DNA of 64,000 nt from Candidatus Magasanikiibacteriota bacterium (GCA_017991415.1 JAGOQR010000001.1:277992-341991); one strand, 5' to 3'; shown: positions 1,340 to 55,611, counted from the stretch's first letter. The notes: generated from the sequence alone by a model not told the origin. A program made the numbers and translations.

Positions 1340-1921
1340 TTAACTTCTAAGGCTCACATCGTACAATACTTGCTCTAATTTATTTAAAGCTTGTTTAGCT
1401 TGGTCAAATTTTTGACGATTATAGCCAGTCAAATTCATATCAATTAATTGACCGATAATTTCATCTGCTACTTGCCTACACCTTTTGACCTCTTCGTAGT
1501 TTCTTTCTGTGGCAGATTTTATAGCATATCGAAGCAGTTCGCCTGGCACATCACACAAACCACTAATAAAAATATCTGGATCAACTTTAATTTTTGATAA
1601 TTTACCAATGATTTTATGTTCTAAATACTGATGAAACAAATATGCTTCAATATATTCTTCTAACGCTGCTTTGTACGAACCCTCTTCAAAAATACTTGGA
1701 TCTTTTTTATTTTTTTCATTTAAATCAAGCAGAATCTTTTCTGCCTGGACAAGTAGCGCTGCCGCTTCTGCGGCACCATCTCGTTGCATTGCAAAAATTG
1801 CCTTCTTTGCCATATGCTGAGCATCTCCCGCATCTTTAATTACCCCGCGACGTTTGGCCGCATAACCCAACAGCTCTTCTCGAATCTGACTGAAATATTT
1901 TTTATCCAACATACATAACAA
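1340..1921 (-). CDS. hypothetical all-alpha protein (possibly translin-like)
   Basis: 193-aa ORF, helical and charged composition, no recognisable catalytic motif. The translin-like assignment is a weak impression only. Confidence 0.3.
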   Translation of the reverse strand: MLCMLDKKYFSQIREELLGYAAKRRGVIKDAGDAQHMAKKAIFAMQRDGAAEAAALLVQAEKILLDLNEKNKKDPSIFEEGSYKAALEEYIEAYLFHQYLEHKIIGKLSKIKVDPDIFISGLCDVPGELLRYAIKSATERNYEEVKRCRQVADEIIGQLIDMNLTGYNRQKFDQAKQALNKLEQVLYDVSLRS

Positions 1922-6511: not shown

Positions 6512-7219
6512 TTATTTACCTGCCACAACCACCAAGTTGCGGGCGTCTTTTTTGAGAGCAACATGATTGCCTTTTGTATAATATATTTTTTCTATTTTAA
6601 AACCAACGACTTCCAATAATTCTCTTATTTCTTTTTTTGTAAAATGATGATAATAACGTTCCGCTAACACTTCACCCTCTTGAGTTTTCCAAGGAATTAA
6701 ATAATCATTTTTTTGCAACAGCTTCCAATCCTTCTTAAACTTTTCTTCTGCCCACTCACTCTCTAAATTCCAGACTGTAATGATGAGCTTTGCTTTTTTT
6801 TTCATTTCTTTATACGTTTTTTTTAATAATTCCAACCGAGTTTCTGTATTGGGCAAATGATGAAACGAGGCAATCATAAAAACCAGGTCAAAAAAATTAT
6901 TATCAAATTGCACCTCTTTTTTTGCATTAGATAAAAATTTAACCGTACCTGTTTTAAGAAATCTAGAAAATTGCTTTTTGGCAATTTTTAACAACTCTTC
7001 ACTTTGATCAACTCCATAATACTGCGGCGATTTATCTTCCAAAATATAGAGAAGCCTGCCATTACCACACCCCCAATCCAAAATAGTTTTATTTTTACCT
7101 ATCAAATCTCTAAACTTTTCAAGCTCTGCGGCATGATAGCGAGTAGCCGCAAAGTAAGGGGCGATACGGTTGTAATCTTCCCGAGTTTTATGTATAATCC
7201 GTACGTCATCTATAGACAT
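6512..7219 (-). CDS. class I SAM-dependent methyltransferase (possible Trm9/ALKBH8-like tRNA methyltransferase)
   Basis: Motif I ILDWGCGNGRLL and motif II/III spacing typical of the Rossmann methyltransferase fold. Divergently abuts Elp3, with start codons 7 bp apart. Confidence 0.7.
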   Translation of the reverse strand: MSIDDVRIIHKTREDYNRIAPYFAATRYHAAELEKFRDLIGKNKTILDWGCGNGRLLYILEDKSPQYYGVDQSEELLKIAKKQFSRFLKTGTVKFLSNAKKEVQFDNNFFDLVFMIASFHHLPNTETRLELLKKTYKEMKKKAKLIITVWNLESEWAEEKFKKDWKLLQKNDYLIPWKTQEGEVLAERYYHHFTKKEIRELLEVVGFKIEKIYYTKGNHVALKKDARNLVVVAGK

Positions 7220-7225
7220 ATTCCC

Positions 7226-8875
7226 ATGGCAATTAACGAAACTATAATTAAGTATCTTGTCCTTAACCCTCCCGAAACGGAGACTGATTTTAGCGAATCT
7301 CTACGAAGAATGTTACGCCAAGAAAATGATCCGAAAATTTCTATTCCTAACAAGCAAGAGCTGCTCAAATCATACCATAAATTAGTCCGCACGGGCAAGG
7401 TCACAAAAAGTATTCAACTAGAAAAAATCTTGCGTCGTCGCGCTGTACGTACCCTATCAGGGGTAACCATAATTACGTCGCTGGTAAAACCATTCCCATG
7501 CCCTGGGAAGTGCGTATATTGCCCGCTCGATGCTCGCATGCCGAAGAGTTATTTGTCCGACGAACCAGCTGCCGCCAGAGCTCTATCCTTGGAATTTAGC
7601 CCCTATGACCAAATGGCCAAGCGCATTGAGGCTTTAGAGAACAATGGCCACCCTACCGATAAGGTAGAGCTTATTATTAAAGGTGGCACTTGGAATTCAT
7701 ATCCTCTACCCTACCAATATTGGTTTATTCTCAAATCTTTTGAGGCGGCCAATCGAACTGGAAAGAAAAATAAAACAAGAGCTACCAAACTACATGAAAA
7801 CTCTTCGGTTAGTAAACTTCGGGCTGAACTAGCTAAACAACAAAAAATTAACGAAACTGCTAAACATAGGATTATCGGCTTAACCCTCGAAACCAGACCC
7901 GACTGTGTTAACGCACGTACTGTTTGGCAAATGCGAGAAATGGGTTGTACTCGTATTGAACTTGGTATCCAGCATACTAATGACACTATCTTAAAACTCA
8001 TAAAACGGGGTCATGATAATGCCAGGTCAAAACTAGCTACCAAACTACTCAAAAACTGTGGCTACAAAACCGACTTCCATCTTATGCCGCAGCTCCCTGG
8101 AGCTGACCCTGCTACTGACCTGGCTATGATGATGGCAGTTTTTGAAGATCCTGGATTTAGACCAGATATGATTAAGGTATATCCTTGTTCAGTAATCAAA
8201 AACTCTGAATTATATGATTGGTACAAAGAAGGAAAATATAAAGCCTACCCAACAGAGGATTTGCTCCAAATGTTAAAAAAATTCAAACCACATGTACCTC
8301 GTTACTGCCGCATCTCTCGCCTCATTCGTGATATACCAGGTCAATATATCGAAGATGGCAATAAAACCACCAACCTACGCCAGGTAATTCAAGAGCAGAT
8401 GAAAAAAGAAGGCACTAGGTGTGTTTGTTTGCGCTGCCGAGAAATTGCTCATGCAGATATTTCCCAAATAAAGGACTTAACCCCACGTTTATTTGTTGAT
8501 GAATACGAAACCCTTGGTGGCACAGAATACTTTTTATCTTTCGAAGATGCAGATAGATTGGTCATATTTGCCTTTTGCCGTTTACGACTGGTAGATAAAA
8601 GCGATGCTAAACAAGATAAAAAGCTTATTCCATTTCCTGCGTATATCCGCGAACTTCATACGTATGGCCAGTTAGTAAAAATTGGTAAACAAGAATTGGA
8701 TTCTAGCCAACACAAAGGCTTAGGAAAAAAACTAGTAAAAATGGCAGAAAAAATTACCAAAGATCATGATATAAAAAAACTAGCTGTGATTTCGGGAGTA
8801 GGTGTGCGAGACTATTATCGCCACCTAGGATACAAGCTAGAAAATACCTATATGGTTAAAAAACTAATAAAGTAG
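7226..8875 (+). CDS. elp3: Elp3-family tRNA uridine(34) carboxymethyl-modifying enzyme (radical SAM plus GNAT)
   Basis: Radical-SAM CPGKCVYCP cluster followed by YLSDEPAAARA; GHPTDKVELIIKGGTW; C-terminal GNAT box SQHKGLGKKLVKMAEKI. These match eukaryotic and archaeal Elp3 signatures closely. Start moved to ATG 7226 (MAINET). Confidence 0.85.
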   Translation: MAINETIIKYLVLNPPETETDFSESLRRMLRQENDPKISIPNKQELLKSYHKLVRTGKVTKSIQLEKILRRRAVRTLSGVTIITSLVKPFPCPGKCVYCPLDARMPKSYLSDEPAAARALSLEFSPYDQMAKRIEALENNGHPTDKVELIIKGGTWNSYPLPYQYWFILKSFEAANRTGKKNKTRATKLHENSSVSKLRAELAKQQKINETAKHRIIGLTLETRPDCVNARTVWQMREMGCTRIELGIQHTNDTILKLIKRGHDNARSKLATKLLKNCGYKTDFHLMPQLPGADPATDLAMMMAVFEDPGFRPDMIKVYPCSVIKNSELYDWYKEGKYKAYPTEDLLQMLKKFKPHVPRYCRISRLIRDIPGQYIEDGNKTTNLRQVIQEQMKKEGTRCVCLRCREIAHADISQIKDLTPRLFVDEYETLGGTEYFLSFEDADRLVIFAFCRLRLVDKSDAKQDKKLIPFPAYIRELHTYGQLVKIGKQELDSSQHKGLGKKLVKMAEKITKDHDIKKLAVISGVGVRDYYRHLGYKLENTYMVKKLIK

Positions 8876-8906: not shown

Positions 8907-9305
8907 ATGAACTTGCCTCCAAACTCAATTATCGCTTCTGGACCAGTCATTATAGAAGATGGCAAAGTTTTGCTTAATCGTGAACAAAAGGAATACGGAT
9001 CAAGTTTGTTTATGATTCCAGGTGGCATAGTAGATGATTTTTCTATTCCACTTGAAGAAACCTGTAAACGAGAAGTGAAGGAAGAACTAGGAATTGAAAT
9101 AAAAATTATTCGTCCATTACGTACACTTATAGTAAAAAGGCCAGGGACAGAAAATAAATTAGCCATACTGACCCATTACCTAGCAGAAAGAGTTGGCGAA
9201 ATTAAGCCTGGCGCAGAAACCATAGAATGGGGCTGGTTTGATATTCACAACCTACCAAATAACTGTGCGCCGAGTATTTATGAAATTGTAAAAGATGTAA
9301 TGTAA
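8907..9305 (+). CDS. NUDIX hydrolase
   Basis: Nudix box GGIVDDFSIPLEETCKREVKEELGI. Confidence 0.8.
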   Translation: MNLPPNSIIASGPVIIEDGKVLLNREQKEYGSSLFMIPGGIVDDFSIPLEETCKREVKEELGIEIKIIRPLRTLIVKRPGTENKLAILTHYLAERVGEIKPGAETIEWGWFDIHNLPNNCAPSIYEIVKDVM

Positions 9306-20136: not shown

Positions 20137-23100
20137 TTAATTGGTAGGAGCAGCGTAAATAAAGTTTGCTGGGTTGGTTACAATAGTATTTACATTTAAA
20201 ATATCATCATCTGTTATCAAATTAGACCCAGATGGCTTATTGATATTAAATACTTGCCAATACTTGGCACTTTGATTATCCGAAGGAGCTGCTGCTTGAA
20301 AATAAAAAGTTTTTACCGGGGTACCAAACCGATAGAAGTTTCTATCTTGATTATTAGATCCTTGGCCACCAGATTCAACCAGAGTTTGAGACTCAATTGT
20401 ATTAATATCATTTTCTGGCAAATAAACGTCCACCTTCATTCGAGCCGTGTTTTTAAATTGTCTTATAGCTACACTAGGGGACTTTACATAAAAGGAATAA
20501 GTATCACCTTCCATTGCACCAATATCTACCGTAAATGATTCTGCGTTAGTCTGCCCTACCGTACTGTTAAATCCATGATACCAAATACCATACCAGCGTG
20601 CATTTGGCGTATTATAGTAAGTAACACCAGTGGAATATTTCTTTTGCAATGGATTATCACACGCCAAGCCTGATGTATTACAGTATGAAGCACCTGTAAT
20701 TTCTGGATTAGGAACGAATGGGTTGACCACACCTCCAAAAAAATCTTCGGGGCCTACCCAACTTACTACAATTCGCAAATCATTATTTCTAACAGTATTT
20801 CGAATAATTGGCGATAGCACAAAATCATACTGCCAGCTAGCAGGAGAAGCCACTACCGTAAAATCAAACGGTCTAAACAAATCACGATTTAAGTATGCCA
20901 AATATTTCTTACTCCTATCCTCTCCTGCTGAACATGTCGGATTACTACTTACTAAAGCATTCCCTGCAGCGTACGGATTTAGCAAAGAATACGAAGAAAA
21001 ATCAGTGGATGCCTGATCTTTAATCGCTTTGCCCACCAAAGGAGACCCTAGTGTATTTTGATCACAATTTGTCTTGGCTGTAAAAAAGTCAAAGAACGCT
21101 GTTATTGGCTGGCAATACCCTATCGACAAATAAATAGAACTACTAGTAAGCTCTTTGGTAAAGAGAGGGTCCTTTTGAGCAGCAAGGACAGTAGAAGAAG
21201 CAAGAACGTTAATTAAGCCACCACTTACACTCACCCCATTGGAATCCACACCACAACTTACACAATTTCTTACAACACCCAAAGAACAGTCACCACAAGT
21301 CTTGGTTCCTTTTTTTAATGTATGAGGTACATATGGCTCATTTGCACACTCTAGCTCTTGATACCCATTATGGGCAAGATCTTTGGTAAAAAGCGTAGTG
21401 CTGTTTGTACTTGTTGTCGAAGCATAAATTACCCCGCCAGCCATATCACATCGTTCCGAATTCTCAATAATACCATTACCACAATACTGGGAAGGTTGGA
21501 CATCAATACTATTCTGACAATCAGCCGAACAATACGAACAACTTTGACCATATGCAGGGGTACAGGCTCTACCATTATTTGCCACACCACGATCACATGC
21601 TTCATTTGCATCTACAATATTATTTCCACAAGAACCGCTCGGTAGATTAGTTGCGACAGGCGTAGTAGTCGGCAGACAAAACCAATTTCCTTGGTAACTA
21701 TTTCTAACTTCATCTTCGGATAAGACACGCTTATATATTTTTATCTCGTCAAGACTTCCTGAAAAAATATTTGTATAATTTCCAGCTGAACTTAAAGACG
21801 CTCCAATAATTGCTTGCGTATTCGATTTATTCATAAAAGAAACTGGCCCTGTCGAAGCTTTGGTATTTTCTAGATTTCCGTTTATATATATTTTTGCAAT
21901 GTTATTTGTACCTACCCGCTCAAATGTTCCTACTATATGAGTCCATACATTTAATGCAATTGCAGTATTAGAATCAACACCTGTTGCCAAGCCGTTATTC
22001 CATAAATTAAATCGAGCTGTATGGCCAGTAGAAGAAGCATTTAATTCTAACCCGTATCCTACACCAACGCCTGGCCCACCTTTTTCTATAACACGGGCAT
22101 ACAACGTATCATAATGAACAGGTTTAACCCAAGCCTCAACACTAATACTCTCAGGTGTTAAGAGGCTAACATGATCACTGACCTGTAAATATTTTGGCTT
22201 ATTAATATCTGAGCCAAAATTCAAACCATTCCCAAACCGTCCTTGGTCTATAAGCGGACAATGCAAGAGATCGCATTTTGCATCATTATCATTTACCGAA
22301 TTGTCTGGTGTAGAAGTAATGCCGCTTATCTTTTTTAGCTCTTCAAACTGCCACCAAGCAAGAGCATACTGATCTGCTTTTTTACAATCACTTGTACAAA
22401 CTTTTATGCCCGGCTGATTATTAATCGTACATACTTGTGAGCCCTCACAACTTTCGCCGTGCTCCGTCTGTACAATGTTATCTCCACAATACGGACCCCA
22501 ATTCTGACAATCCCACGCACAAGAATTTTGCCGACCAGCTACACTATATCTTTCCTGTCCTGACAATCCTGAATCACATACTTCATAGGCAGACTCTACA
22601 GTGCCATTACCACACCTACCCAACGGACTCAGACCAGTACATAACAAATTACAATGATTATATTTACCATTTAAATTTCCATCATCACAGGTTTCTCCTG
22701 ACTCTTTTACCCCATTACCACAGCTGCTTAAATTACTGCAGAGCGTAGTCGAGGCAACCCACTGACAAGAACTATTACAAACTTTTAAATTTTTTATACT
22801 ACCCACACATCCTGCCTGATATTCGACCCTACCTTGAGGATCACACTGCTCTCCTTTATCTAAATTTAACTTACCATCGCCACAGACACCTGATTGCACG
22901 GTTGAAATTTCTTGATCAAAATTACACACACCAGAATCTTCGTTAATTTTAACAACGCTCGTACTCACAAAACTAGCTACGAAACTATTAAAATTATTTG
23001 GAGTAATACCAGTATCTTCAAAATGAGCTCTTATAGTATAAGCACCTGTACTCGAAGAAACTATATATCTATATGCATAGGACTCTCGATTGCAGGCAAA

Positions 23101-23436
23101 ACTAAAACGACGATCCGCTGTACTCCAGCCAGTAGTAGGGTCATGCAAAATACAAGCCTCGCCTCCTTCACACTGACTATCATTTAAACAAAAACGGTTG
23201 GTGTTTACCGCACAGGTACCTGCCAAACCAAGCTGGTTGATAGGATCGGTTGGTAGAGCTTGACCTAAGGCAGTGCCGAGCAAAGACCAGGATGGCCACA
23301 CACTTAAGGTTTGACCAACTAAATATGTCCCCTCTTTTAAAGGAGGAATGTTAGCAGCTACAGCTTTATAAAAAAATAAAAAACTTAGCGCCAAAACAAT
23401 TATAGTTGAAGATACAAATAATTTTTTATTTTTCAT
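20137..23436 (-). CDS. secreted 1099-aa surface protein with Cys-rich CGNG...E.CD repeats and a LamG/concanavalin-like domain
   Basis: Cleavable signal peptide; six or more repeats of the form CG[DN]G-x5-7-E-x-CD; a central LamG_3-like segment ending [19 protein letters not shown]. Confidence 0.6.
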
Positions 23437-23472: not shown

Positions 23473-26400
23473 TTACAAACCAAGCAACGACTGAATCTCG
23501 CTCAAATCTCTCAGTCGTATATAATTTCTTTTTAACTTATCAATCTGCACCGAACATACTTCTCCATTGTTACAGTCTAAATCTGTTTGACAGGCTGTTG
23601 TAGCACCAGGATTTTCCATAGTTGCTCCACAATAGCCATAATTAGTTAAGTTAGTGTTAAAGCTTAGATTACTAATTAATTGCTCAAACACCGCTCTAGT
23701 CTCGGATTTAGCATCCGCATTAATACTAAACAGGTAGATATTAGAGAATAAATTATATGAGGTGTCAGAATAATTGAGTGCATCCACATAAATATTATTT
23801 CCATCAGTTAAAGCATCATATCCATCTATTTTTGTAGTCTGCATATTGCCAGTAAAGCCTTGCCCGCCAAGAGCACGGTCGTTTTCAAACCACTGCGAAA
23901 CTGTTAAATGTTGCGGATTAGAGAAAACAGAAATACCAATCGCATCATTATTTTTAGCATTGGTAAAGATAAATCTTTTGAGACTTGATGTAGGACTATC
24001 TGCCACCACAGGAGCGTCTGCTTGCACCGCTGGTCGTAAATAAGGAAGGTCGTCAGAAACACCAAACACACCTTTATCCGCGCAGTAGTATGTTCTAAAG
24101 TTAAAATAGCCACCAGCCTGAGAAGACGGAATTGTAAACCCATTAAATGTATCTAACGATAAATCGTACTGATCATTATTATTTAACTTATCTTCATATG
24201 GGAAAATAATAAATGGACCATTACCACCGATATATAAATCTTTAGGCGGCCATGGATTCTCGCATAAAAACACAATCGCTCTTGACTTGCCTGTAGCTAC
24301 TAAACCAGATTGCGAGGAATAGCTATTATCTGTTATAACTGCCGAAGCTCGAACATCAATTTCGCCATTACGATTTTGAGCAGTAATAATATTTAGAGAA
24401 GAAGTAGTGCTAATCAAATTAACATACGGATTTCCAACAGGCTGCCATAAATAATTCCAAGAATAATAGCCTGGGATCGGCTGAATTCGAGCCGAATTAC
24501 TACTGTAGGCCGAAGCCAACAAGGTAGAACTGGCATTAACTCGGTTGAAATATACTTGCGACGGTTCTACCGAAACCTTCTCAACTTCACAAATATTAGT
24601 TCCTGTAATAAATTTCCAGCTGATTGGCTTGGTAGTGTTGCCGTTATTACCAATTTTCATACCCTGTTTACTTGCAATAACATCTTTTAAAGCAACGAAA
24701 TAATCCGAATCAACAGCAAGTGGTTTTGAAAGTTTGAAGACTACTTTGCTGAGCGAATTACTAATAGGCTCTACATCTGCTTGTCCGATATCTTCGCCCG
24801 CACACCATCTCGTAGAACGAATTTCTGTACGCAAAGCCTCTACAGACTGACCAGAAATACTTCTAAAGAAATTAACTACTCGAACAATAATTTTCTTATA
24901 CCAAGGTATATTACTAGACGAATCAGATTGCGCAGCAAGGGCTAAAGCAGTAACATCTTCACCAGTAGCGCAGGTAGAAGAGGTTGTGCCTTTAGCAACT
25001 ATCACATTATTACGAACCGTTGCAGGATCAATTTGCTGGTCAAATACTGCTTCAATAGACGTATTTGGACAAATATTAAACCTAGCGGTAGAAGTAGATC
25101 CCGGAAATACATTTAATAATTTTGGACGCATATAACAACACCCGTTATTCGCCACGGCCCAACCTGACCCCATTCTTGCCTCGCACTGCGCATCCGTTGA
25201 ATAACCACATTGAATTACAAATTCACCACTATCAGAAATACTACCACTCGTCGTATTTTCATTGGTACTGGCGATAATACTGCTTTTTTGAGTAGCAGGA
25301 ACTCCTGTTGGAGTGCCCAATCCTACACCTGTTACTAAAGCCCAAGGATTTACTCCATTATGGACACTTGAAAGATTTGTTTCACAGAATGCGTCCTCAC
25401 CTATCCCCGCAACACCATCCCCACATAAAGAGGGCGCTGTGTACAATAAAGACGAACCACTATTTTGTCTATCTGAACCACAGCCTTCACTTCCAGAAGC
25501 ACATTCGGCATGAGTACTATCTTTATATAGACAGAAATTGTCACACCAATCCGCTTTTCTTCCACCCCCTAAATCACAACCAGCATCTTCATCAGGACTC
25601 ATAACACCATCACCACAACGACTTACTGCGCCTTTACACGCAGCATCAAAAGCACCTTGAGCAAAACCTCCCTTACTCGCTGCATTAGCATAACACCAAG
25701 AATTTGAAAGTTTACTACCCTGATGTAAACAATTCTGAGAACAATTCATACTTGAAGCTGAAGATGTTGCAGAAGAAGCAATACCTAAATCACAATCCTC
25801 TCCTAATCCAACTGAACCATTACCACAAATAGAATCATTTACCGAACTAGCGGCTGTAGAAGCAGCAGATCCTGTTCGCAAACAATTATTTGTACAGCCA
25901 GCTGCAGAAGCAGGTATACCTGGATCGCAATTTTCACCAAGGTTTGGCTCAAAAACCCCATTACCACAAGTTGAAGTACTACTATTTCCTAATCGACGGC
26001 AATCCAAACCACAACCTGCTCCACTAAAAGGAGCATCACAGTCCTCACCGGCTTCTACCACACCATTACCACAAACTGGTACAGCTGTTGCTACCACACT
26101 AATACTACTACCTTTTCTAACACAATTTTTATCACAATACGGATTATTACCACGACTACTAAAGCTTCTTACCCGAGCCACAACATTTGGAGCTGAGGAA
26201 ACATCCGAGGAGCTCCAATTCCAACTCACAGACCAAGGATTTAACTTTTGACCTTGAGTGCTACAAGTATCTGGAGAAGAATAAGGCTGGGCATTGTACA
26301 GTTTTTTACTATCAACAGAATCAGCAATAAATGTTTGCGGCAAAACATCCACCCGACTTATTTTACATTTTTCTGCTTTGGTTTTGAATCTCCAGCTAAA

Positions 26401-29400
26401 TTCTTTATTGTATGGCTTGGAGAATGTATTAGGATCTCCCAAACGAGAAGCGGACCATAATAAATTTGGTGAATTAGTATCTGTGCTTGAAGCTGACAAA
26501 ACAACCTTGTAAATAGTATTTGGTTCTAGCTCAGAAGAATCAAGAGTTGAGTTGGCAATTTTTAAAACTTTATAATTTTCAGCGCCATCTAAAACGACAT
26601 CTACAGCCACTAACACTGGTGTGGTGCTCAAACAATTTTCGTCATTACATTTTAATAATTTTATTGGACCACTAATCGCAGACCCAGGCAAATTTCTTCT
26701 TGACATAGTGGTATTAAAACGAACACCTACTTCGGAGTTTGTACATGACTCCAAACATTTTGGCCAAAAATCTACCACTTCAGGATTATTTAAATCAATA
26801 GTAAGCGGACTTACTCCGATGTATGTAGAAGAAGCAATGGTGGCTTGCGCTGAAATATTTATACTATTATTTGGATTTACCAAGCCTACCCCTACCGTAT
26901 TAGCTAAGGCCGAAACTTTTGCTGAATCGTTATTAGTTGAATAAATATCAGCATACGTATTATTTTGAGTATCCCAAGTCCAATCAAACGCATCGGTATT
27001 CATAACCACACAATGCTGTGTCGTTAAACCATGACCACTATATACCACATCTTCACCGTCGCTAGCTGCGGTCTGGCGATGTTTGATAGGCTCTTCTAAT
27101 ACAGAGGTCCAATAACTATACGGGGTAATAACCACCTTTTTCATTCTGCAATCTTGAGAATCAGCTCGAAAAACAAAGCAATACGCAGAATTTGGACCAC
27201 AAGGTTTATCTTGGGCTAGTGGAACTGTGGAAGTGCCAACACCCGCACTAATACCTGACTTTAAAATAACTTGATACCAGGTATTATCTTTCCATTTTCC
27301 ACTATTATAGGCAGCATCTGGATTAAGTTGTAAATAGCTAGTATTTTCTGTGCTGAGAGCAGGGTCTAAGTCTCCTACACCACTAACTGGAACAATTTGA
27401 GATGAGGTACACGTTCGAGCTGCCTCATCTATTGTATTGGCCTGACATTCATTAATAACAAAATTCGATCGAGGAATATTGTTTATATTTGGAGAACTAA
27501 ATTCCACCACAACCGAAGCAGTACGACAAATATTATGATGGGAATCATTTGTAGAAACATCCCACTGAGCACTTGGGGACGGACTTGGAATATTTAAACC
27601 CAAATCTGTATTATTATCACATCTTTCTATAACACGAGGCACGCGCGGTATGTCTTTCGTGCTTATTCGCCAAATATACCCAGCTGAAAAAGTCTCCCCT
27701 TCACACAATTCATTGGTTGGTCGACACAAACCAGCTTCAGACCCAGAAACACAACAATGAGTATTTGGAACAGTACAGGTATTATTATTTCGAACACAGT
27801 CGAGCACAGAAAAATTAGCGGGATTGCTTATTCTATTATCCGAAGCTCTTGATACTACTACTGGCCCACTACGAGTACCAAGTGGTGGCAAGGTCGAGAC
27901 TGATTGACCAACAATCAAATTTGATACTGTAGACAAACTAGATAATAAGCGACCAGAGACAGCTGTTGGAGAGGCACCTTCAGTCCAAAAATAAACAGAT
28001 GGATTTGGCCCAAAGTATTCTCCTGTAATTTGTATTTTAGGAGCATCCGCAGAAAATGGTACTGGCCCCGACAGCGGATTAATATTACAGATACCCGGAT
28101 TTGGCTCGCCACTATCTAAGTTGAAAATTGGCCCAATCTGACTCCATCCTTGCGAAGCATCTGCAGGACGAACTTGCACAAAATAACTTTTACCAGCCTC
28201 ACCACTTCCAGAAGGGAATTTTACAATTATTTGATTATTTGACCACGTATTACGACATCCAACAGGAAAATTAAAATTTCCTTCGATAGCATCACCAGGC
28301 TGACCATTTACGTTTTCTTTAAACCAAACTCTACCAATTTGATTACCAAAATTATTACCGCTAATTGTTATATACGATCCTTTAGCTCCATGATCTGGAG
28401 AAATTTCAGAAATTACTGGGGCAGAATCACTTAGGCCTTGGTCTACAAAAAATCTAACACTATTACTCTCTAAATTATTTTGAGTAATAGCAACACCTAC
28501 CGGACCATTGTTAAGTAAAGGCACTCTTGTTCTTACCAAAGTATCAGTCCAATTTGCCAAGGTAGTTAAAACATTTTGACCAGCAAAAGATACTTGCCCA
28601 GGCGCATTTCCCAATCTTTTTCCTACAAGCGAAACTTCTGTACCAGGTAAACCATTAGCAGGATTAACCGAACACAAGCCAGGACGAACCAAATTATTAA
28701 CTTCGAAATCACTAATACGTGGACCAAAATTATCATCAGTAGAATCAATAAATTTACCTGCACTTGTTGTTGCTGTCTCAACCCTAATTGAGCCACTGGT
28801 CGCATTAGGTGGAACTTCTGCAATAATTTGCCAAGGCTTCCAATTTGACGACCCGCAGGCAGTAGCGAGCGGAGCTTCAATATTATTTATAAAAACTTTT
28901 CCAGGGTTAGTACCAAAATAACTTCCAGAGATTGTTACAAGAGTTCCTGGCCCACCAGACAAAGGAGAAACATTATTAATTCTCATTTTATCTATACAGG
29001 TACCTGCTTGTGTATCACAATAGCCACTACTACACTGCGTATTAGTTGTACAAGCTGATCCTGGACAAGCGCCACACTCACCACCACAAGCCGGAGGACC
29101 AGCTTGCACCTCTCCTAAATCTGATTGCAGATTACCATCAAAACAGTGCTGCGGTAATAAATTTACTTTTGTGCTTGTTGTATAAGAAAGGGCTGACCAA
29201 TCATAACCTGTTGCAGAAAGTGTATGTTCCCCCACTCCAATACCAGTTGTTGGCCAAGCAACTACCACCGAACCCGATTGCTGACAACCTGAAATAGTTC
29301 TACTGCCAACAAAATAACTATCTGCGCTGAGATCTATTTTTTGAACACCATTATCGTCGGTATATCGTACTGTTACTGGCACCGAAGATCCTGATTGCAA

Positions 29401-30261
29401 TAAATCAGAAGCAATTGGTTCAATTTTTATTTCTGGAGGCAACCTATCTACACCCTCTCCTGTAGTAAATTCTACATTTCCACAACCAGCTCTAATAGCA
29501 CAATTTAAGGTCATTTGCCCATCTAAATTTTTGACTGCGCTTGGATTTTTAAAATGCAAAATATATTTAGTAGAAGCAGCCAAACAATCTGCAGCACCAC
29601 TACCACAATCACCCGCTGGTACAAAGGCAGCAGTATTTTCTGTTAACAAACTCCATTGCCCCGCCTGCTCTTGTCCACCTTCTGTTTGCACTACTATATT
29701 ACCATCAAGAGTTCTTACATCTACAGCTCTATTAAAAGTAACCGTCACGTGAACATTGCGAATACACATAGCGCCTCCTTGTGGCAGGCTATCAACATAA
29801 AAAATTCCAGATGGAAAATATGGATTGTCACCTGTTGGTGAACCATTACCAGAATTAAAATCACCGCCAGTGGCATCGACTAGTCTACTAATAACAAAGC
29901 TAGCAATAGCATAGGAAGACAAAATTATAACAAGACCAATAACCGCATTAAGTAAAATCTTCTTAGCTTGAGAAACTTTCTCCTCATCACCACCAGAAGT
30001 CATCCAAACAACCCCGCCATATAAAATAAGTGCCAACGCAACTATACCAAGAAGCCCCAAAGCTGTGCGAATAATTCGCGCAACTACTAATCGTATGTCT
30101 GTAGATGGTAGGCCAATATTATTTTCTATTGGCTGAAGCCCCAAATCTGGAGCGCTCGTTGTTTGAGCCAAAACAAAATCTTTACCAAAAAACAAACTAA
30201 CGCCAACAAGTATTGCAAACAAAGACAGGAAGATAATTTTTTTTACTTTATTTTTTTCCAT
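23473..30261 (-). CDS. giant 2262-aa surface protein with a VirB2/TrbC-pilin-like N-terminal module plus IPT/TIG-like domains and Cys-rich repeats
   Basis: N-terminal signal peptide (cleavage near AQT), then two hydrophobic helices joined by a VWMTSGG loop, mirroring VirB2. Repeated P-x-S-G-P-x-G-T-x-V-T-I-x-G-x-x-F segments (IPT/TIG-like). Five tandem CGNG-x-E-CD Cys-rich repeats near residues 1397-1630. An SD-like AAGGAG lies 8 nt upstream of the ATG. Confidence 0.6.
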   Translation of the reverse strand: MEKNKVKKIIFLSLFAILVGVSLFFGKDFVLAQTTSAPDLGLQPIENNIGLPSTDIRLVVARIIRTALGLLGIVALALILYGGVVWMTSGGDEEKVSQAKKILLNAVIGLVIILSSYAIASFVISRLVDATGGDFNSGNGSPTGDNPYFPSGIFYVDSLPQGGAMCIRNVHVTVTFNRAVDVRTLDGNIVVQTEGGQEQAGQWSLLTENTAAFVPAGDCGSGAADCLAASTKYILHFKNPSAVKNLDGQMTLNCAIRAGCGNVEFTTGEGVDRLPPEIKIEPIASDLLQSGSSVPVTVRYTDDNGVQKIDLSADSYFVGSRTISGCQQSGSVVVAWPTTGIGVGEHTLSATGYDWSALSYTTSTKVNLLPQHCFDGNLQSDLGEVQAGPPACGGECGACPGSACTTNTQCSSGYCDTQAGTCIDKMRINNVSPLSGGPGTLVTISGSYFGTNPGKVFINNIEAPLATACGSSNWKPWQIIAEVPPNATSGSIRVETATTSAGKFIDSTDDNFGPRISDFEVNNLVRPGLCSVNPANGLPGTEVSLVGKRLGNAPGQVSFAGQNVLTTLANWTDTLVRTRVPLLNNGPVGVAITQNNLESNSVRFFVDQGLSDSAPVISEISPDHGAKGSYITISGNNFGNQIGRVWFKENVNGQPGDAIEGNFNFPVGCRNTWSNNQIIVKFPSGSGEAGKSYFVQVRPADASQGWSQIGPIFNLDSGEPNPGICNINPLSGPVPFSADAPKIQITGEYFGPNPSVYFWTEGASPTAVSGRLLSSLSTVSNLIVGQSVSTLPPLGTRSGPVVVSRASDNRISNPANFSVLDCVRNNNTCTVPNTHCCVSGSEAGLCRPTNELCEGETFSAGYIWRISTKDIPRVPRVIERCDNNTDLGLNIPSPSPSAQWDVSTNDSHHNICRTASVVVEFSSPNINNIPRSNFVINECQANTIDEAARTCTSSQIVPVSGVGDLDPALSTENTSYLQLNPDAAYNSGKWKDNTWYQVILKSGISAGVGTSTVPLAQDKPCGPNSAYCFVFRADSQDCRMKKVVITPYSYWTSVLEEPIKHRQTAASDGEDVVYSGHGLTTQHCVVMNTDAFDWTWDTQNNTYADIYSTNNDSAKVSALANTVGVGLVNPNNSINISAQATIASSTYIGVSPLTIDLNNPEVVDFWPKCLESCTNSEVGVRFNTTMSRRNLPGSAISGPIKLLKCNDENCLSTTPVLVAVDVVLDGAENYKVLKIANSTLDSSELEPNTIYKVVLSASSTDTNSPNLLWSASRLGDPNTFSKPYNKEFSWRFKTKAEKCKISRVDVLPQTFIADSVDSKKLYNAQPYSSPDTCSTQGQKLNPWSVSWNWSSSDVSSAPNVVARVRSFSSRGNNPYCDKNCVRKGSSISVVATAVPVCGNGVVEAGEDCDAPFSGAGCGLDCRRLGNSSTSTCGNGVFEPNLGENCDPGIPASAAGCTNNCLRTGSAASTAASSVNDSICGNGSVGLGEDCDLGIASSATSSASSMNCSQNCLHQGSKLSNSWCYANAASKGGFAQGAFDAACKGAVSRCGDGVMSPDEDAGCDLGGGRKADWCDNFCLYKDSTHAECASGSEGCGSDRQNSGSSLLYTAPSLCGDGVAGIGEDAFCETNLSSVHNGVNPWALVTGVGLGTPTGVPATQKSSIIASTNENTTSGSISDSGEFVIQCGYSTDAQCEARMGSGWAVANNGCCYMRPKLLNVFPGSTSTARFNICPNTSIEAVFDQQIDPATVRNNVIVAKGTTSSTCATGEDVTALALAAQSDSSSNIPWYKKIIVRVVNFFRSISGQSVEALRTEIRSTRWCAGEDIGQADVEPISNSLSKVVFKLSKPLAVDSDYFVALKDVIASKQGMKIGNNGNTTKPISWKFITGTNICEVEKVSVEPSQVYFNRVNASSTLLASAYSSNSARIQPIPGYYSWNYLWQPVGNPYVNLISTTSSLNIITAQNRNGEIDVRASAVITDNSYSSQSGLVATGKSRAIVFLCENPWPPKDLYIGGNGPFIIFPYEDKLNNNDQYDLSLDTFNGFTIPSSQAGGYFNFRTYYCADKGVFGVSDDLPYLRPAVQADAPVVADSPTSSLKRFIFTNAKNNDAIGISVFSNPQHLTVSQWFENDRALGGQGFTGNMQTTKIDGYDALTDGNNIYVDALNYSDTSYNLFSNIYLFSINADAKSETRAVFEQLISNLSFNTNLTNYGYCGATMENPGATTACQTDLDCNNGEVCSVQIDKLKRNYIRLRDLSEIQSLLGL

Positions 30262-30291: not shown

Positions 30292-32316
30292 TTAAAGACT
30301 TGTTTGTTTTAGGTAATCTAAACAGGCTGACATCCCAGCCCCAACTGACCCATTACAACAGAACGCATTATTTTGCTCAGTTATAACCTGACAACAATTT
30401 TCTGGGTTACCATTCTGACAATCTGGTGAGACAGTTGTATTTGGAAACACGCTCATTCGTGGACCCTTACCAGGATAAAAACAGTTAAAATGGACATCTT
30501 CAACTGTAGAACTAACAACGGTAAAGTAATACTGGCGAGCAGAATCTAAAAATGGCCCATGATTCAATCGCGTATATGTTGTGCCATTAGCATTAAAAGA
30601 TGAAAGAGGTACTTTCCAAACCGGAATTTCATGAGTTGGTTTTTCTTCGATATTAATATTATACATAGAATCAGCTCGCATTCTTTCACTAAATGTCATG
30701 CTTAATTCTTGATACCGAGTAATATTTTCAGCATCAATGCCTGGCGTGATATTTTGTATAAATGGAGATGAAGTATCTATCTGGTTAACAATATTAAAAT
30801 TCCAGAAGTAGTTATCTGGTTGTTTTTGGTTAGGGAAAACAGGCATTGAACTTGTGGCAAGATTAGGAATATTATTTTTATTACCATCGAGCGCATTACC
30901 AGCTAAATCAGTTACACCAGAAAATGGCTGGGCTTCAAAAGAGTTTGGATTAATAATTCGAGCCGCTTTTAGGAGCACCTCGTAGGTATCTTGTGTGCAA
31001 TTTGCCCCTGGCTTATCACAGACCGGTAAACAAAATATTTTATTTCCACATGCATTTTGGCCACACTCTTGAGTTGGGGCGAACTCCAATGTTCGGTATC
31101 CATTAGTAAGACTAAAATTACCTTTTGGTAAAGTGCTGTTACTAGATTTTAAATAAACATTTTGCCCATCGAGAGAAAAATAATCACTCTCTGCATTAAA
31201 CTTACCAGTAATACCAATCGGATCGAGCGGCTCATTAAAATTAATCTGTAAAACACTATTTTTATCTTCTGCACTATTTAAATCTGGAAACACACTCTCT
31301 ACTACAGGAGGAGAAATATCTAAGGCTGTGCTATTAGTAAATTTCCATTCATAGTAATTATTTCCCAAAATACTAGCTCTAAAAACAGACGGATTATTAT
31401 TCGCCTGATCGTCGATTAATATACCAGGACCAAGGTGAACAAAATAACTTATCGGCTCTGTAGCGCTACCCAAATAACCGCCACTACTTATTGCCGTATC
31501 AGTAATTGGTTTAATTAATAAAGTATAAACTCCCGTAATATTATTTTCCGTACTTATCGCACCTAAAATTACCGCCCCCACGATACTTTCTCCCGTATCT
31601 GCTCGCTTAATATTTATTAGATTATCAGTAACATTTTTTAGTCGATCACAGTCAGCATACCAGTTTTGCACTGTTGTTTTGCAGTTTCCAAAAATACCAT
31701 CTGCTGTAGTATCGTCTACAAGACTATCCATCTTAATAGGGCGACGGAAACTTATCACAATTCTTGAATTGCGAGGAACACCAACCTGATCACGAGATGG
31801 ATAATGATCTTTTACAATCTGCCCTAAAGCGCCACTTCCTTGAAAATTTTCTGATAAGGGAGCTTCAATATTACCTCCTCCAGAACCTAGATCAGCATTT
31901 CCTGTAGCGTCTACCAGCTTACTAATAACAAAACTCACTATGGCGTATGCGCTTAAAATAATAGCCAAACCAATAGCGGTGTTAATCAAAAACTTTTTTG
32001 CCGTATCAATCTGCTCTTCATTTCCGCCGGCTGTCATCCATAAAAAGCCTCCATAAAGAACTAAAATTAAAGCTATAATTCCTAAAAGTCCAAGCGCAAC
32101 TCTTACAATCCGCGCAATCACGAGCCGTATATCAGTTGCGGGCAGTCCTAATGGCTGCTCTATTATTTGAACTCCTGTTTGAAGACCACTATTTGGATCA
32201 GCTACACTTTGTGCTTTTGCTGGGCGTGAATAACTAAAAATCGCCAATGAAAACAATATCGTTATCATGGCGACTTTAGTTATTTGGATAAATTTTTCTC
32301 GCATCCATTGAAGCAT
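30292..32316 (-). CDS. 674-aa surface protein, paralogous VirB2/TrbC-like N-terminal module plus extracellular domain
   Basis: Residues about 30-140 align with the N-terminus of the 2262-aa protein (GLPxTDIRLVxARIxRxALGLLGIxALxLxLYGGxxWMTxGG...LxNxxIGLxIILSxYAIxSFVISxLVDATG). Cys-rich C-terminal tail. Confidence 0.6.
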   Translation of the reverse strand: MLQWMREKFIQITKVAMITILFSLAIFSYSRPAKAQSVADPNSGLQTGVQIIEQPLGLPATDIRLVIARIVRVALGLLGIIALILVLYGGFLWMTAGGNEEQIDTAKKFLINTAIGLAIILSAYAIVSFVISKLVDATGNADLGSGGGNIEAPLSENFQGSGALGQIVKDHYPSRDQVGVPRNSRIVISFRRPIKMDSLVDDTTADGIFGNCKTTVQNWYADCDRLKNVTDNLINIKRADTGESIVGAVILGAISTENNITGVYTLLIKPITDTAISSGGYLGSATEPISYFVHLGPGILIDDQANNNPSVFRASILGNNYYEWKFTNSTALDISPPVVESVFPDLNSAEDKNSVLQINFNEPLDPIGITGKFNAESDYFSLDGQNVYLKSSNSTLPKGNFSLTNGYRTLEFAPTQECGQNACGNKIFCLPVCDKPGANCTQDTYEVLLKAARIINPNSFEAQPFSGVTDLAGNALDGNKNNIPNLATSSMPVFPNQKQPDNYFWNFNIVNQIDTSSPFIQNITPGIDAENITRYQELSMTFSERMRADSMYNINIEEKPTHEIPVWKVPLSSFNANGTTYTRLNHGPFLDSARQYYFTVVSSTVEDVHFNCFYPGKGPRMSVFPNTTVSPDCQNGNPENCCQVITEQNNAFCCNGSVGAGMSACLDYLKQTSL

Positions 32317-34839: not shown

Positions 34840-34916
34840 TGGTGGGCATGCCAAGAATCGAACTTGGGACCTCGTCATTATCAGTGACGCGCTCTAACCA
34901 TCTGAGCTACATGCCC
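34840..34916 (-). tRNA. tRNA-Ile (anticodon GAT)
   Basis: Reverse complement GGGCATGTAGCTCAGATGGTTAGAGCGCGTCACTGATAATGACGAGGTCCCAAGTTCGATTCTTGGCATGCCCACCA forms a cloverleaf with anticodon loop CTGATAA. CCA is encoded. Confidence 0.9.
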
Positions 34917-35014: not shown

Positions 35015-35077
35015 TTCTCACAAATGTAAATAATGAAATTCAGAATAACATTTTTTCATTAAAAAATCAAGTCCTTG

Positions 35078-35151
35078 TGGGTATATCCCGACTCGAACGG
35101 GAGACCTTCGCAATGTCAATGCGACGCTCTAACCAACTGAGCTATACACCC
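35078..35151 (-). tRNA. tRNA-Val (anticodon GAC)
   Basis: Reverse complement GGGTGTATAGCTCAGTTGGTTAGAGCGTCGCATTGACATTGCGAAGGTCTCCCGTTCGAGTCGGGATATACCCA forms a cloverleaf with anticodon loop TTGACAT. CCA is not encoded. Confidence 0.9.
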
Positions 35152-36065: not shown

Positions 36066-37627
<1,562 letters not shown>

Positions 37628-55062: not shown

Positions 55063-55611
55063 TTAAATCTTTTCAAAAATTAATGAGTAATGATAATCTC
55101 CTGGCAAAATCTTTTCTACAAACTTAAAGTTTTCTGCTATAGCCAAACTAGACAACTCTTCGGGACTAAGCAACGATTTTTCATCTGGACCGAGCATGCC
55201 TAATTTTTTTGCCCAATCTACCGCTACCAGATACCCACCCTTTTTAAGCATGCGAGAAGCTTCTTTAAGAGCTCCTGCCTTATTTTTCAATTGAAATAAT
55301 ACATTAACACAAAAACATACGTCAAGTGACCCCGTCGGTATTGGCGTCTTGCCCGGCATTTCAATGTCCGACCAAACAGTTTGAACATTATCTATTCCCC
55401 CGCTCCGAGCCAAGCTTTTTATGCTTTCAAGAATATTCTTTACCACATCAACTGCATAGACCACACCCTTGTCTCCTACTACCTTTACAGCTGGAAATAC
55501 AAAATGGCCAGTTCGACCACAACCTAAGTCGGCCACTCTTTTTCCTGGAGATAAGGCAATTTTTTCAAAAATTTTATACGGATCAATAAGGGCTGTACCA
55601 GTATGCGCCAT
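55063..55611 (-). CDS. class I SAM-dependent methyltransferase
   Basis: Motif I RVADLGCGRTG and motif II VYAVDV. Confidence 0.7.
   Translation of the reverse strand: MAHTGTALIDPYKIFEKIALSPGKRVADLGCGRTGHFVFPAVKVVGDKGVVYAVDVVKNILESIKSLARSGGIDNVQTVWSDIEMPGKTPIPTGSLDVCFCVNVLFQLKNKAGALKEASRMLKKGGYLVAVDWAKKLGMLGPDEKSLLSPEELSSLAIAENFKFVEKILPGDYHYSLIFEKI

Follow-up and report, generated by a model that had tools for sequence, protein, structure and literature searches.

Head-to-head genes for Elp3 and a Trm9-like methyltransferase in a Candidatus Magasanikiibacteriota genome and its relatives: a predicted wobble-uridine modification pathway in bacteria

The DNA considered here, called the window in the following, is a stretch of 64,000 nucleotides (nt) from Candidatus Magasanikiibacteriota bacterium (GCA_017991415.1, JAGOQR010000001.1:277992-341991). 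Between positions 6512 and 8875 it harbors two genes in head-to-head orientation: on the plus strand a gene for Elp3, a radical S-adenosylmethionine (SAM) protein, and on the minus strand a gene for a class I SAM methyltransferase (MT) whose closest characterised relative is Trm9. We describe the pair, its conservation in other genomes, and its probable role in the modification of wobble uridines (U34) in tRNA. The genome was viewed through this window, and statements of absence hold for the window alone. The principal features are:

6512-7219, minus strand: Trm9-like class I SAM MT of 235 amino acids (aa) with an ATG start (open reading frame (ORF), PDB matches, AlphaFold (AF2) model and Foldseek)
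7058-7078, minus strand: SAM-binding motif I of the MT, DWGCGNG (from the sequence)
7170-7198, plus strand: putative sigma-70-type promoter of Elp3, TTGTAA-17 nt-TATAAT (consensus scan, conservation)
7220-7225: spacer ATTCCC of 6 nt between the divergent start codons (from the sequence)
7226-8875, plus strand: Elp3, a radical-SAM and GNAT protein of 549 aa, predicted tRNA U34 carboxymethyl synthase (TIGR01211, PDB matches)
7499-7522, plus strand: radical-SAM [4Fe-4S] motif CPGKCVYC of Elp3, C92-x3-C96-x2-C99 (aligned with the cluster loops of MinElp3 and DmcElp3)
8420-8437, plus strand: prokaryote-type Zn site CVCLRC of Elp3, C399/C401/C404 (alignment)
8708-8725, plus strand: GNAT acetyl-CoA motif QHKGLG of Elp3, residues 495-500 (alignment)

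The larger protein is, by its sequence, unambiguously Elp3 at the family level. It matches the NCBIfam model TIGR01211 (Elp3) with 526.1 bits against a cutoff of 350 (model positions 37-522), and Pfam assigns the domains Radical_SAM and Radical_SAM_C; the Pfam GNAT assignment is borderline (Acetyltransf_1 with 21.0 bits against a cutoff of 20.7, Acetyltransf_10 below cutoff). The best solved relatives are the Elp3 proteins of M. infernus (MinElp3, 1.8e-115) and D. mccartyi (DmcElp3, 1.1e-113), and eukaryotic Elp3 structures match at about 1e-84. The acetyl-CoA motif QHKGLG is aligned to QHMGYG in MinElp3 and QHRGLG in DmcElp3, and the three Zn cysteines are those kept in bacterial and archaeal Elp3 (PMC6367351). 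Translation starts at the ATG at 7226-7228 and ends at 8875. This start is supported, since the relatives align from residue 1 (63-88% identity); the TTG at 7004 proposed by a mechanical ORF list was rejected in its favour. The protein carries an N-terminal extension of about 64-70 residues that is conserved in relatives. An earlier reading of the locus, made from the sequence without database searches (the sequence-only reading), had recognised a full-length Elp3 with radical-SAM cysteines and a C-terminal GNAT box, in agreement with the 526-bit match and the intact motifs. Its remark that Elp3 is rare in bacteria was overstated: the scan of close relatives described below alone returned 40 bacterial species-level genomes as well as one Nanoarchaeia archaeon, and a paper of 2026 refers to Elp3 in "numerous bacteria" (PMC13315578).

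The smaller protein is a class I SAM MT that abuts Elp3 divergently, as the sequence-only reading had it: the ORF spans 235 codons and Pfam assigns class I domains (Methyltransf_23/25/31/11), all of them generic. No NCBIfam model scores above its cutoff; the best matches, CpaM and UbiE, lie far below. Relatives align from residue 1 with 47-74% identity, which supports the annotated start. Comparison of sequences identifies Trm9 as the closest characterised relative. With the single sequence as query, the closest solved structure is Trm9 of Yarrowia lipolytica (5cm2_Z, 6.2e-14; runner-up 2e-10), and a profile of 34 family members yields 5.7e-23 (84.6 bits) for 5cm2_Z and 1.7e-17 (66.7 bits) for the next structure. 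The identity to Trm9 is about 25-28%, and the Trm9 reference in these comparisons is one bona fide sequence, PDB 5cm2_Z. A Foldseek search with the AF2 model (predicted local distance difference test, pLDDT, of 91) again returns 5cm2_Z at the top (E-value of 1.2e-13, 25% identity). As a control, a second class I SAM MT of the window (182 aa, 55063-55611, minus strand) has no Trm9 match; its best PDB match is 3dh0. Some relatives of the MT bear the JGI label 'tRNA (uracil-5-)-methyltransferase TRM9', and one NCBI record of a relative reads 'catalyzes esterification of modified uridine nucleotides in tRNAs'; automated pipelines have therefore already seen the similarity. Other automated names among the relatives are of the UbiE type. 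Sequence and profile matches, fold model, active-site residues (see below) and the control MT together place the protein, at the family level, as Trm9-like. The suspicion that it might group with unrelated small-molecule MTases did not hold, 5cm2_Z being its best PDB match and the residues defined by mutagenesis being kept.

These residues are known from ScTrm9, in which alanine mutants of R29, D72, H116, W145, W168, R241, Y243 and N271 have no activity or a strongly reduced one (PMC4678810). All eight are present in the window MT, together with the equivalents of H115 and Y18; the numbering of the structure chain was checked against that of the paper at 13 positions. A family profile search over 1.84 billion representatives gave 553 proteins at E ≤ 1e-30, and conservation was counted in the best 147 of these 553 (at least 200 aa, at most 50% mutual identity). 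The correspondence is as follows, with ScTrm9 residues given first and all coordinates on the minus strand:

7139-7174: N-terminal lid helix with Y16 and R27, proposed to position the carboxylate (alignment to Trm9)
Y18, proposed carboxylate contact: Y16 of the MT, kept in 141 of 147
R29: R27, kept in 146 of 147
D72, acidic residue of SAM binding: D71, kept in 147 of 147
H115 and H116, the latter essential: H120 and H121 (6857-6862), H121 kept in 145 of 147
W145, essential: W150, kept in 147 of 147
W168, essential: W177, kept in 130 of 147, with an aromatic residue at this position in 146 (W150 and W177 span 6689-6772)
R241: R188, in the motif R188-Y-Y190-H (6647-6658), kept in 144 of 147
Y243: Y190, in the same motif, kept in 101 of 147
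N271 (N222 in Y. lipolytica), proposed reader of uracil O2/N3: N228 (6536-6538), kept in 134 of 147

A pairwise HMMER alignment suggests N218 as the equivalent of N271. This candidate was rejected for N228, because a MAFFT alignment that includes the full C-terminus of the Y. lipolytica protein pairs NWWVVAK with NLVVVAGK where the last strand begins.

The association between the two genes is widespread. The closest relatives of both proteins are found in Candidatus Magasanikbacteria and other Patescibacteria. A scan with the Elp3 protein over one genome per species (GTDB) yielded 41 loci (L001-L041), in which the MT was located near Elp3 by tblastn. An MT gene lies immediately upstream of Elp3, in divergent orientation without exception, in 38 of the 40 informative genomes (37 bacterial, one archaeal); L029 and L034 have other genes upstream, and one further locus is uninformative (contig end). 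In Magasanikbacteria the whole block GT4-GT4-MT/Elp3-NUDIX-GlyA-PYK is syntenic, and these loci alone could therefore reflect inertia. Twelve loci are distant, with Elp3 identities of 39-49% and labels that include Kuenenbacteria, Nealsonbacteria, Saccharibacteria, a metagenome-assembled genome (MAG) of Humimicrobiaceae (Actinomycetota) and a Nanoarchaeia archaeon. Here, the other synteny of the window is gone, except for GlyA/NUDIX in three loci (L030, L034 and L037), and the divergent arrangement is kept in 10 of 12. The search for the pair in other genomes of the Candidate Phyla Radiation (CPR), proposed by the sequence-only reading, has thereby found it conserved beyond shared synteny.

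An internal control is provided by a metagenome scan with the MT alignment. The scan matched the generic SAM motif only and is no census of the family; it returned a mixture of MTs and was therefore used as a natural control. Among the matches listed, Elp3 is found divergently upstream of 18 of the 21 MTs that score at least 67 bits to the window MT, and next to none of the 59 weaker, generic MTs (Fisher's exact test, p = 3.7e-15, among the same matches).

Taxonomic labels of MAGs are possibly unreliable. Many contigs among L001-L026 are titled 'uncultured Gammaproteobacteria bacterium' despite a Magasanikbacteria-like synteny and an Elp3 that is 62-88% identical; the title is apparently a placeholder or a wrong label. 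The divergent pair is also present in L040 (DATKUR010000015.1, Candidatus Humimicrobiaceae, Actinomycetota) and L038 (DATDUI010000039.1, Nanoarchaeia), which may reflect a horizontal spread of both genes, or mis-binning. The MTs of L003 and L027 (27-755 and 2193-2897, respectively, both on the minus strand) represent a divergent subtype that is paired with Elp3, is about 33% identical to the window MT, and has RYLY or RFIH in place of RYYH.

The pair also occurs in Dehalococcoidia. The sequence of DmcElp3 was rebuilt from the PDB alignment and located in the complete genome CP019867.1 of D. mccartyi, where a 224-aa class I MT is encoded 43 bp upstream of Elp3 on the opposite strand. It shares 30% identity with the window MT (E-value of 1e-21), and the R, D, HH, W, W, RYY and N positions are retained in it. 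Including D. mccartyi, all four informative Dehalococcoidia loci harbor the pair; one more locus of this type is uninformative (contig end). In three Dehalococcoidia loci, among them that of D. mccartyi, an ORF of 70-75 aa with a zinc-ribbon pattern (CPxC...CWKC) is conserved just downstream of the MT and on the same strand. A CPxC...CxxC scan places it at:

L122, 4423-4650, minus strand: zinc-ribbon ORF
L123, 4387-4605, minus strand: zinc-ribbon ORF
L126, 3005-3217, minus strand: zinc-ribbon ORF

The ORF gives weak generic Zn-ribbon matches and no match to the Trm112 Pfam family, and for this reason we do not call it Trm112; it may be a Trm112-like partner of the MT, or unrelated.

The junction of the two genes is exceptionally narrow. 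The MT starts with the codon at 7217-7219, which reads CAT on the plus strand. The sequence-only reading had the two starts 7 bp apart, which is the difference between 7226 and 7219; the head-to-head arrangement stands, and the actual spacer comprises 6 nt. Over the 38 paired loci, the median of the approximate start-to-start gap is 10 nt, and in 25 loci the gap does not exceed 30 nt. There is no intergenic room for promoters, which must therefore lie inside the respective partner gene.

A candidate for the promoter of Elp3 is found within codons 8-17 of the MT. Of the 12 positions in its hexamers TTGTAA (7170-7175) and TATAAT (7193-7198), 10 agree with the sigma-70 consensus, and the element ends 27 nt before the ATG of Elp3. 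Read as its reverse complement, the -10 hexamer gives the codons for I8 and I9 of the MT (ATT ATA), and the -35 hexamer gives the last base of D15, the whole codon of Y16 (TAC) and the first two positions of the N17 codon. The promoter would therefore partly overlap the codon of a putative catalytic residue, since Y16 is the tyrosine proposed for the active site. The DNA of the element is invariant, synonymous sites included, in 10 aligned sequences (the window and nine loci). Third-position conservation in MT codons 5-18 amounts to 0.94, compared with a gene mean of 0.67, and this is the most conserved 12-codon third-position window of both genes. In 14 sequences (the window and 13 loci) the identical element recurs with an unchanged distance to the start of Elp3; one of these is L003, with an MT that shares only 33% identity with that of the window. 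Matches of at least 10 of 12 positions within 90 nt upstream of Elp3 occur in 60% of 30 loci and in 2% of random windows. We note that promoter-like matches over the 3-kb region are at chance level (10 observed, 9.3 expected), so that the element is singled out by the conservation analysis only. On these grounds a putative Elp3 promoter in the codons of the MT is well supported, and its activity is predicted.

The same does not hold for the opposite direction. Within 120 nt upstream of the MT start, that is, inside the Elp3 coding sequence (CDS), sigma-70 matches are no better than in random windows, and a promoter for the MT is thus unsupported. The sequence-only reading had proposed a shared promoter region and co-regulation; what survives is the conserved promoter of Elp3 inside the MT gene, without an MT promoter above chance. 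Overlapping divergent transcription of this kind could equally cause interference as co-regulation.

Taken together, we consider it probable (roughly 0.7) that Elp3 and the MT are consecutive enzymes of an Elongator-type pathway for wobble uridines, the product of which would be 5-methoxycarbonylmethyluridine (mcm5U). Elp3 would act alone, as in archaea, and use its radical-SAM cluster and acetyl-CoA to place a carboxymethyl group on C5 of U34, giving 5-carboxymethyluridine (cm5U) in some tRNAs. The MT, as a bacterial orthologue of Trm9, would then methyl-esterify the carboxylate of cm5U with SAM to yield mcm5U, which might be thiolated further to the 2-thio derivative mcm5s2U. Since the putative Elp3 promoter lies inside the codons of the MT active-site helix, the two genes are expected to be passed on together as a unit, and probably to move between lineages in the same way. 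For the mcm5U-type pathway proposed by the sequence-only reading, the Trm9 likeness and the conserved pairing speak in favour; the product itself and the tRNA substrates stay predictions.

Several observations weigh against this interpretation. A curated profile specific for Trm9 does not exist, and the Pfam and NCBIfam matches of the MT are generic or below cutoff. Generic MTs are nearly equal to Trm9 in Foldseek (about 2e-12 compared with 1.2e-13), and the fold alone is therefore not decisive. The best PDB match of the D. mccartyi MT is not Trm9, which ranks 7th (1.8e-10). Y190 is kept in only 101 of the 147 representatives, and the subgroup of L003 and L027 has no Asn at the position of N228. 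A crude regular-expression scan of six-frame translations found no Trm112-like ORF in the 64-kb window or in the flanks of the loci, and in the absence of Trm112 both ScTrm9 and Trm9 of H. volcanii (HvoTrm9) are either insoluble or inactive (PMC4678810, PMC6144793). The window contains no gene for a tRNA with U34, its tRNAs being Ile(GAU), Val(GAC) and Leu(GAG). Finally, direct evidence of xcm5U derivatives in bacteria with Elp3 is lacking (PMC7663514).

The generic profile matches, the UbiE-type names and the far sub-cutoff scores of CpaM and UbiE would all be expected if the MT were an ordinary class I enzyme of the small-molecule type or of some other unrelated kind, next to Elp3 by inherited synteny without functional meaning, and the wholly syntenic neighbourhood in Magasanikbacteria fits this explanation as well. 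However, the pair recurs with differing neighbours in Kuenenbacteria, Nealsonbacteria, Saccharibacteria, Actinomycetota-labelled and Nanoarchaeia MAGs and Dehalococcoidia; adjacency to Elp3 tracks the similarity of the MT (18 of 21 compared with 0 of 59, among the matches listed); the catalytic residues of Trm9 are conserved; and the control MT of the window shows no such match. We regard this explanation as very improbable and close to refuted. It is also unlikely, though less so, that the MT is coupled to Elp3 and yet does not form mcm5U, for example because it methylates another atom, another intermediate derived from Elp3, or Elp3 itself. The pairing shows coupling and not chemistry, the identity to Trm9 is low, Y190 varies and in subgroups Q, N or F takes the place of H120, and what becomes of cm5U is not fully understood even in H. 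volcanii (PMC6144793). Against this stands the retention of the residues that would contact the carboxylate of cm5U (R27, H121, R188 and Y16) and read the uracil (N228 and H120); such an exact constellation would be unexpected for a different substrate. Should the MT nevertheless act in this way, the pathway in bacteria would end in a so far undescribed modification.

Within the mcm5U pathway favoured here, one variant concerns a small Zn-binding activator, Trm112 or an analogue, that the MT might need and that would be encoded elsewhere; the pathway would then have more components than the two enzymes named by the sequence-only reading. We hold this for a real possibility, albeit the less probable one. 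The dependence of ScTrm9 and HvoTrm9 on Trm112 argues for it, as does the occurrence in bacteria of short Trm112 orthologues of unknown function (PMC5372719); the zinc-ribbon ORF just downstream of the MT in three Dehalococcoidia loci points in the same direction. On the other hand, neither the window, nor L001-L041, nor the 21 of the 80 listed metagenome loci that carry the closer MTs (L042-L062) show a Trm112-like or Zn-ribbon ORF near the pair; the Dehalococcoidia ORF does not match the Trm112 family; and some archaeal partners of Trm112 are soluble alone (PMC6144793). The relaxed CPxC...CxxC scan, run without the generic-MT loci L063-L121, returned the Dehalococcoidia-specific ORF as its sole match, and the annotated ORFs of the window contain no Trm112 Pfam match.

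The pathway can be compared with several known systems. The MT domain of Trm9/ALKBH8 (5CM2, the Trm9-Trm112 complex of Y. lipolytica), which methyl-esterifies cm5U to mcm5U (PMC4678810), has the same class I SAM fold, N-terminal lid helix and C-terminal beta-hairpin; a further point of agreement is the genomic tie of the window MT to Elp3, the maker of the substrate of Trm9. The window MT differs from it by its bacterial host, the low identity, a beta6-beta7 loop that is about 10 residues longer, and no Trm112 seen nearby. Closest in composition is the archaeal combination of Elp3 with Trm9(-Trm112), for example HVO_2888 and HVO_1032 of H. volcanii: both systems combine a stand-alone Elp3, without Elp1, 2 and 4-6, with a relative of Trm9. 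The Trm9-Trm112 complex of H. volcanii converts cm5U to mcm5U, and mcm5U is present in vivo (PMC6144793). The genes for Elp3 and Trm9 are clustered in Sulfolobus (S. solfataricus; PMC6144793, PMC2584109), and Elp3 of M. infernus is cited in PMC7663514 as forming cm5U34 alone in vitro. The present system is distinguished by its bacterial hosts (CPR, Dehalococcoidia and an Actinomycetota-labelled MAG), the tight head-to-head arrangement (median gap about 10 nt) and the promoter predicted inside the partner CDS; the Nanoarchaeia MAG (L038) shows the same divergent arrangement.

The bacterial Elp3 of known structure, DmcElp3 (5L7J), belongs to the same family, shares the CX3CX2C spacing and the Zn cysteines, and likewise has a divergent Trm9-like MT. 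DmcElp3 has no N-terminal extension, a feature linked to its weak tRNA binding and weak activity (PMC6367351, PMC7663514), whereas the window Elp3 possesses one, as do archaeal and eukaryotic Elp3. The comparison extends to MnmE and MnmG, with MnmC in some cases. These enzymes are the usual bacterial route to modified uridines of the xm5U34 type and act on the same target atom, C5 of the wobble uridine, with presumably the same role in the decoding of NNA and NNG codons in split boxes. The enzymes are unrelated: MnmE/MnmG is a GTPase/FAD pair that uses glycine, whereas Elp3 employs radical-SAM chemistry with acetyl-CoA. Genes for mnmE, mnmG, mnmA or a 2-thiolase are not found in the 64-kb window.

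The components, the chemistry, the archaeal clustering and some TRM9 labels in databases are already known; new are the systematic occurrence in bacteria, the partner MT in D. mccartyi and the putative embedded promoter. A review of 2020 places bacterial Elp3 in one clade, Dehalococcoides (PMC7663514), and a review of 2017 states that no bacterial homologues of the MTs that partner Trm112 are detectable (PMC5372719). The 2026 paper makes no mention of bacterial Trm9 (PMC13315578), and a full-text literature search, with some subscription literature outside its scope, found no description of a bacterial Elp3-Trm9 pairing. Reviews of Elongator and Trm112 treat bacterial Elp3 as a curiosity; our data predict a second pathway enzyme that is tightly linked to it across many lineages, even in D. 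mccartyi, the source of the solved bacterial Elp3 structure. The recurrence of the pair across bacterial lineages suggests that a pathway thought to be almost absent from bacteria is complete there. The role and the end product of bacterial Elp3 thereby become directly testable, the MT possibly offers a Trm112-independent Trm9 for structural work, and the locus would be an unusually clean example of a promoter within functional codons of a divergent partner gene.

A more far-reaching proposal is tentative, and on balance we rather doubt it: bacterial Elp3 would almost always come with its own Trm9, as a horizontally spread head-to-head cassette in CPR, Dehalococcoidia and other lineages that encodes a complete, Trm112-independent pathway of the mcm5U type and possibly replaces MnmE/MnmG in reduced genomes. 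With the promoter in the codons of the lid helix, loss or rearrangement of either gene would also affect its partner.

The remainder of the window is an ordinary CPR chromosome. It encodes, among others, FtsZ/FtsA, Mur ligases, a penicillin-binding protein, TrmD, HisRS, ArgRS, TyrRS, SMC, ClpP, SOD, Fpg and NDK, and contains a 16S rRNA gene. Downstream of the MT, on the minus strand, comes a glycosyltransferase of family GT4. Downstream of Elp3, in the direction of the plus strand, come a NUDIX hydrolase, GlyA and a pyruvate kinase, the last of them convergent. The NUDIX hydrolase (132 aa, 8907-9305, plus strand) starts 31 nt downstream of Elp3. Its adjacency to Elp3 is observed in 18 of the 41 loci, two of them distant: L034 (4126-4521), where the ORF overlaps the stop codon of Elp3, and L037 (4908-5306). 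The hydrolase may be linked to the acetyl-CoA, SAM or 5'-deoxyadenosine chemistry of Elp3.

The complete 16S rRNA gene (36067-37626, minus strand) is followed by tRNA-Val(GAC) (35077-35151, minus strand) and tRNA-Ile(GAU) (34840-34916, minus strand), after which come protein genes (signal peptidase, HisRS). No 23S rRNA gene occurs anywhere in the window, and the rRNA genes appear to be unlinked. Two adjacent large proteins of 2262 aa (23473-30261, minus strand) and 674 aa (30292-32316, minus strand) consist of a T4SS_pilin domain at the start and subsequent bacterial Ig-like domains (Big_5, TIG). Together with an adjoining Laminin_G_3 protein of 1099 aa (20137-23436), they look like a surface or pilus-associated block. 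A further gene (1340-1921, minus strand) encodes a protein of 193 aa that belongs to the Translin family (PF01997, E-value of 3.7e-18), a family of RNA/DNA-binding proteins found mainly in eukaryotes and archaea. It is thus a second RNA-related gene of eukaryotic or archaeal type in the window.

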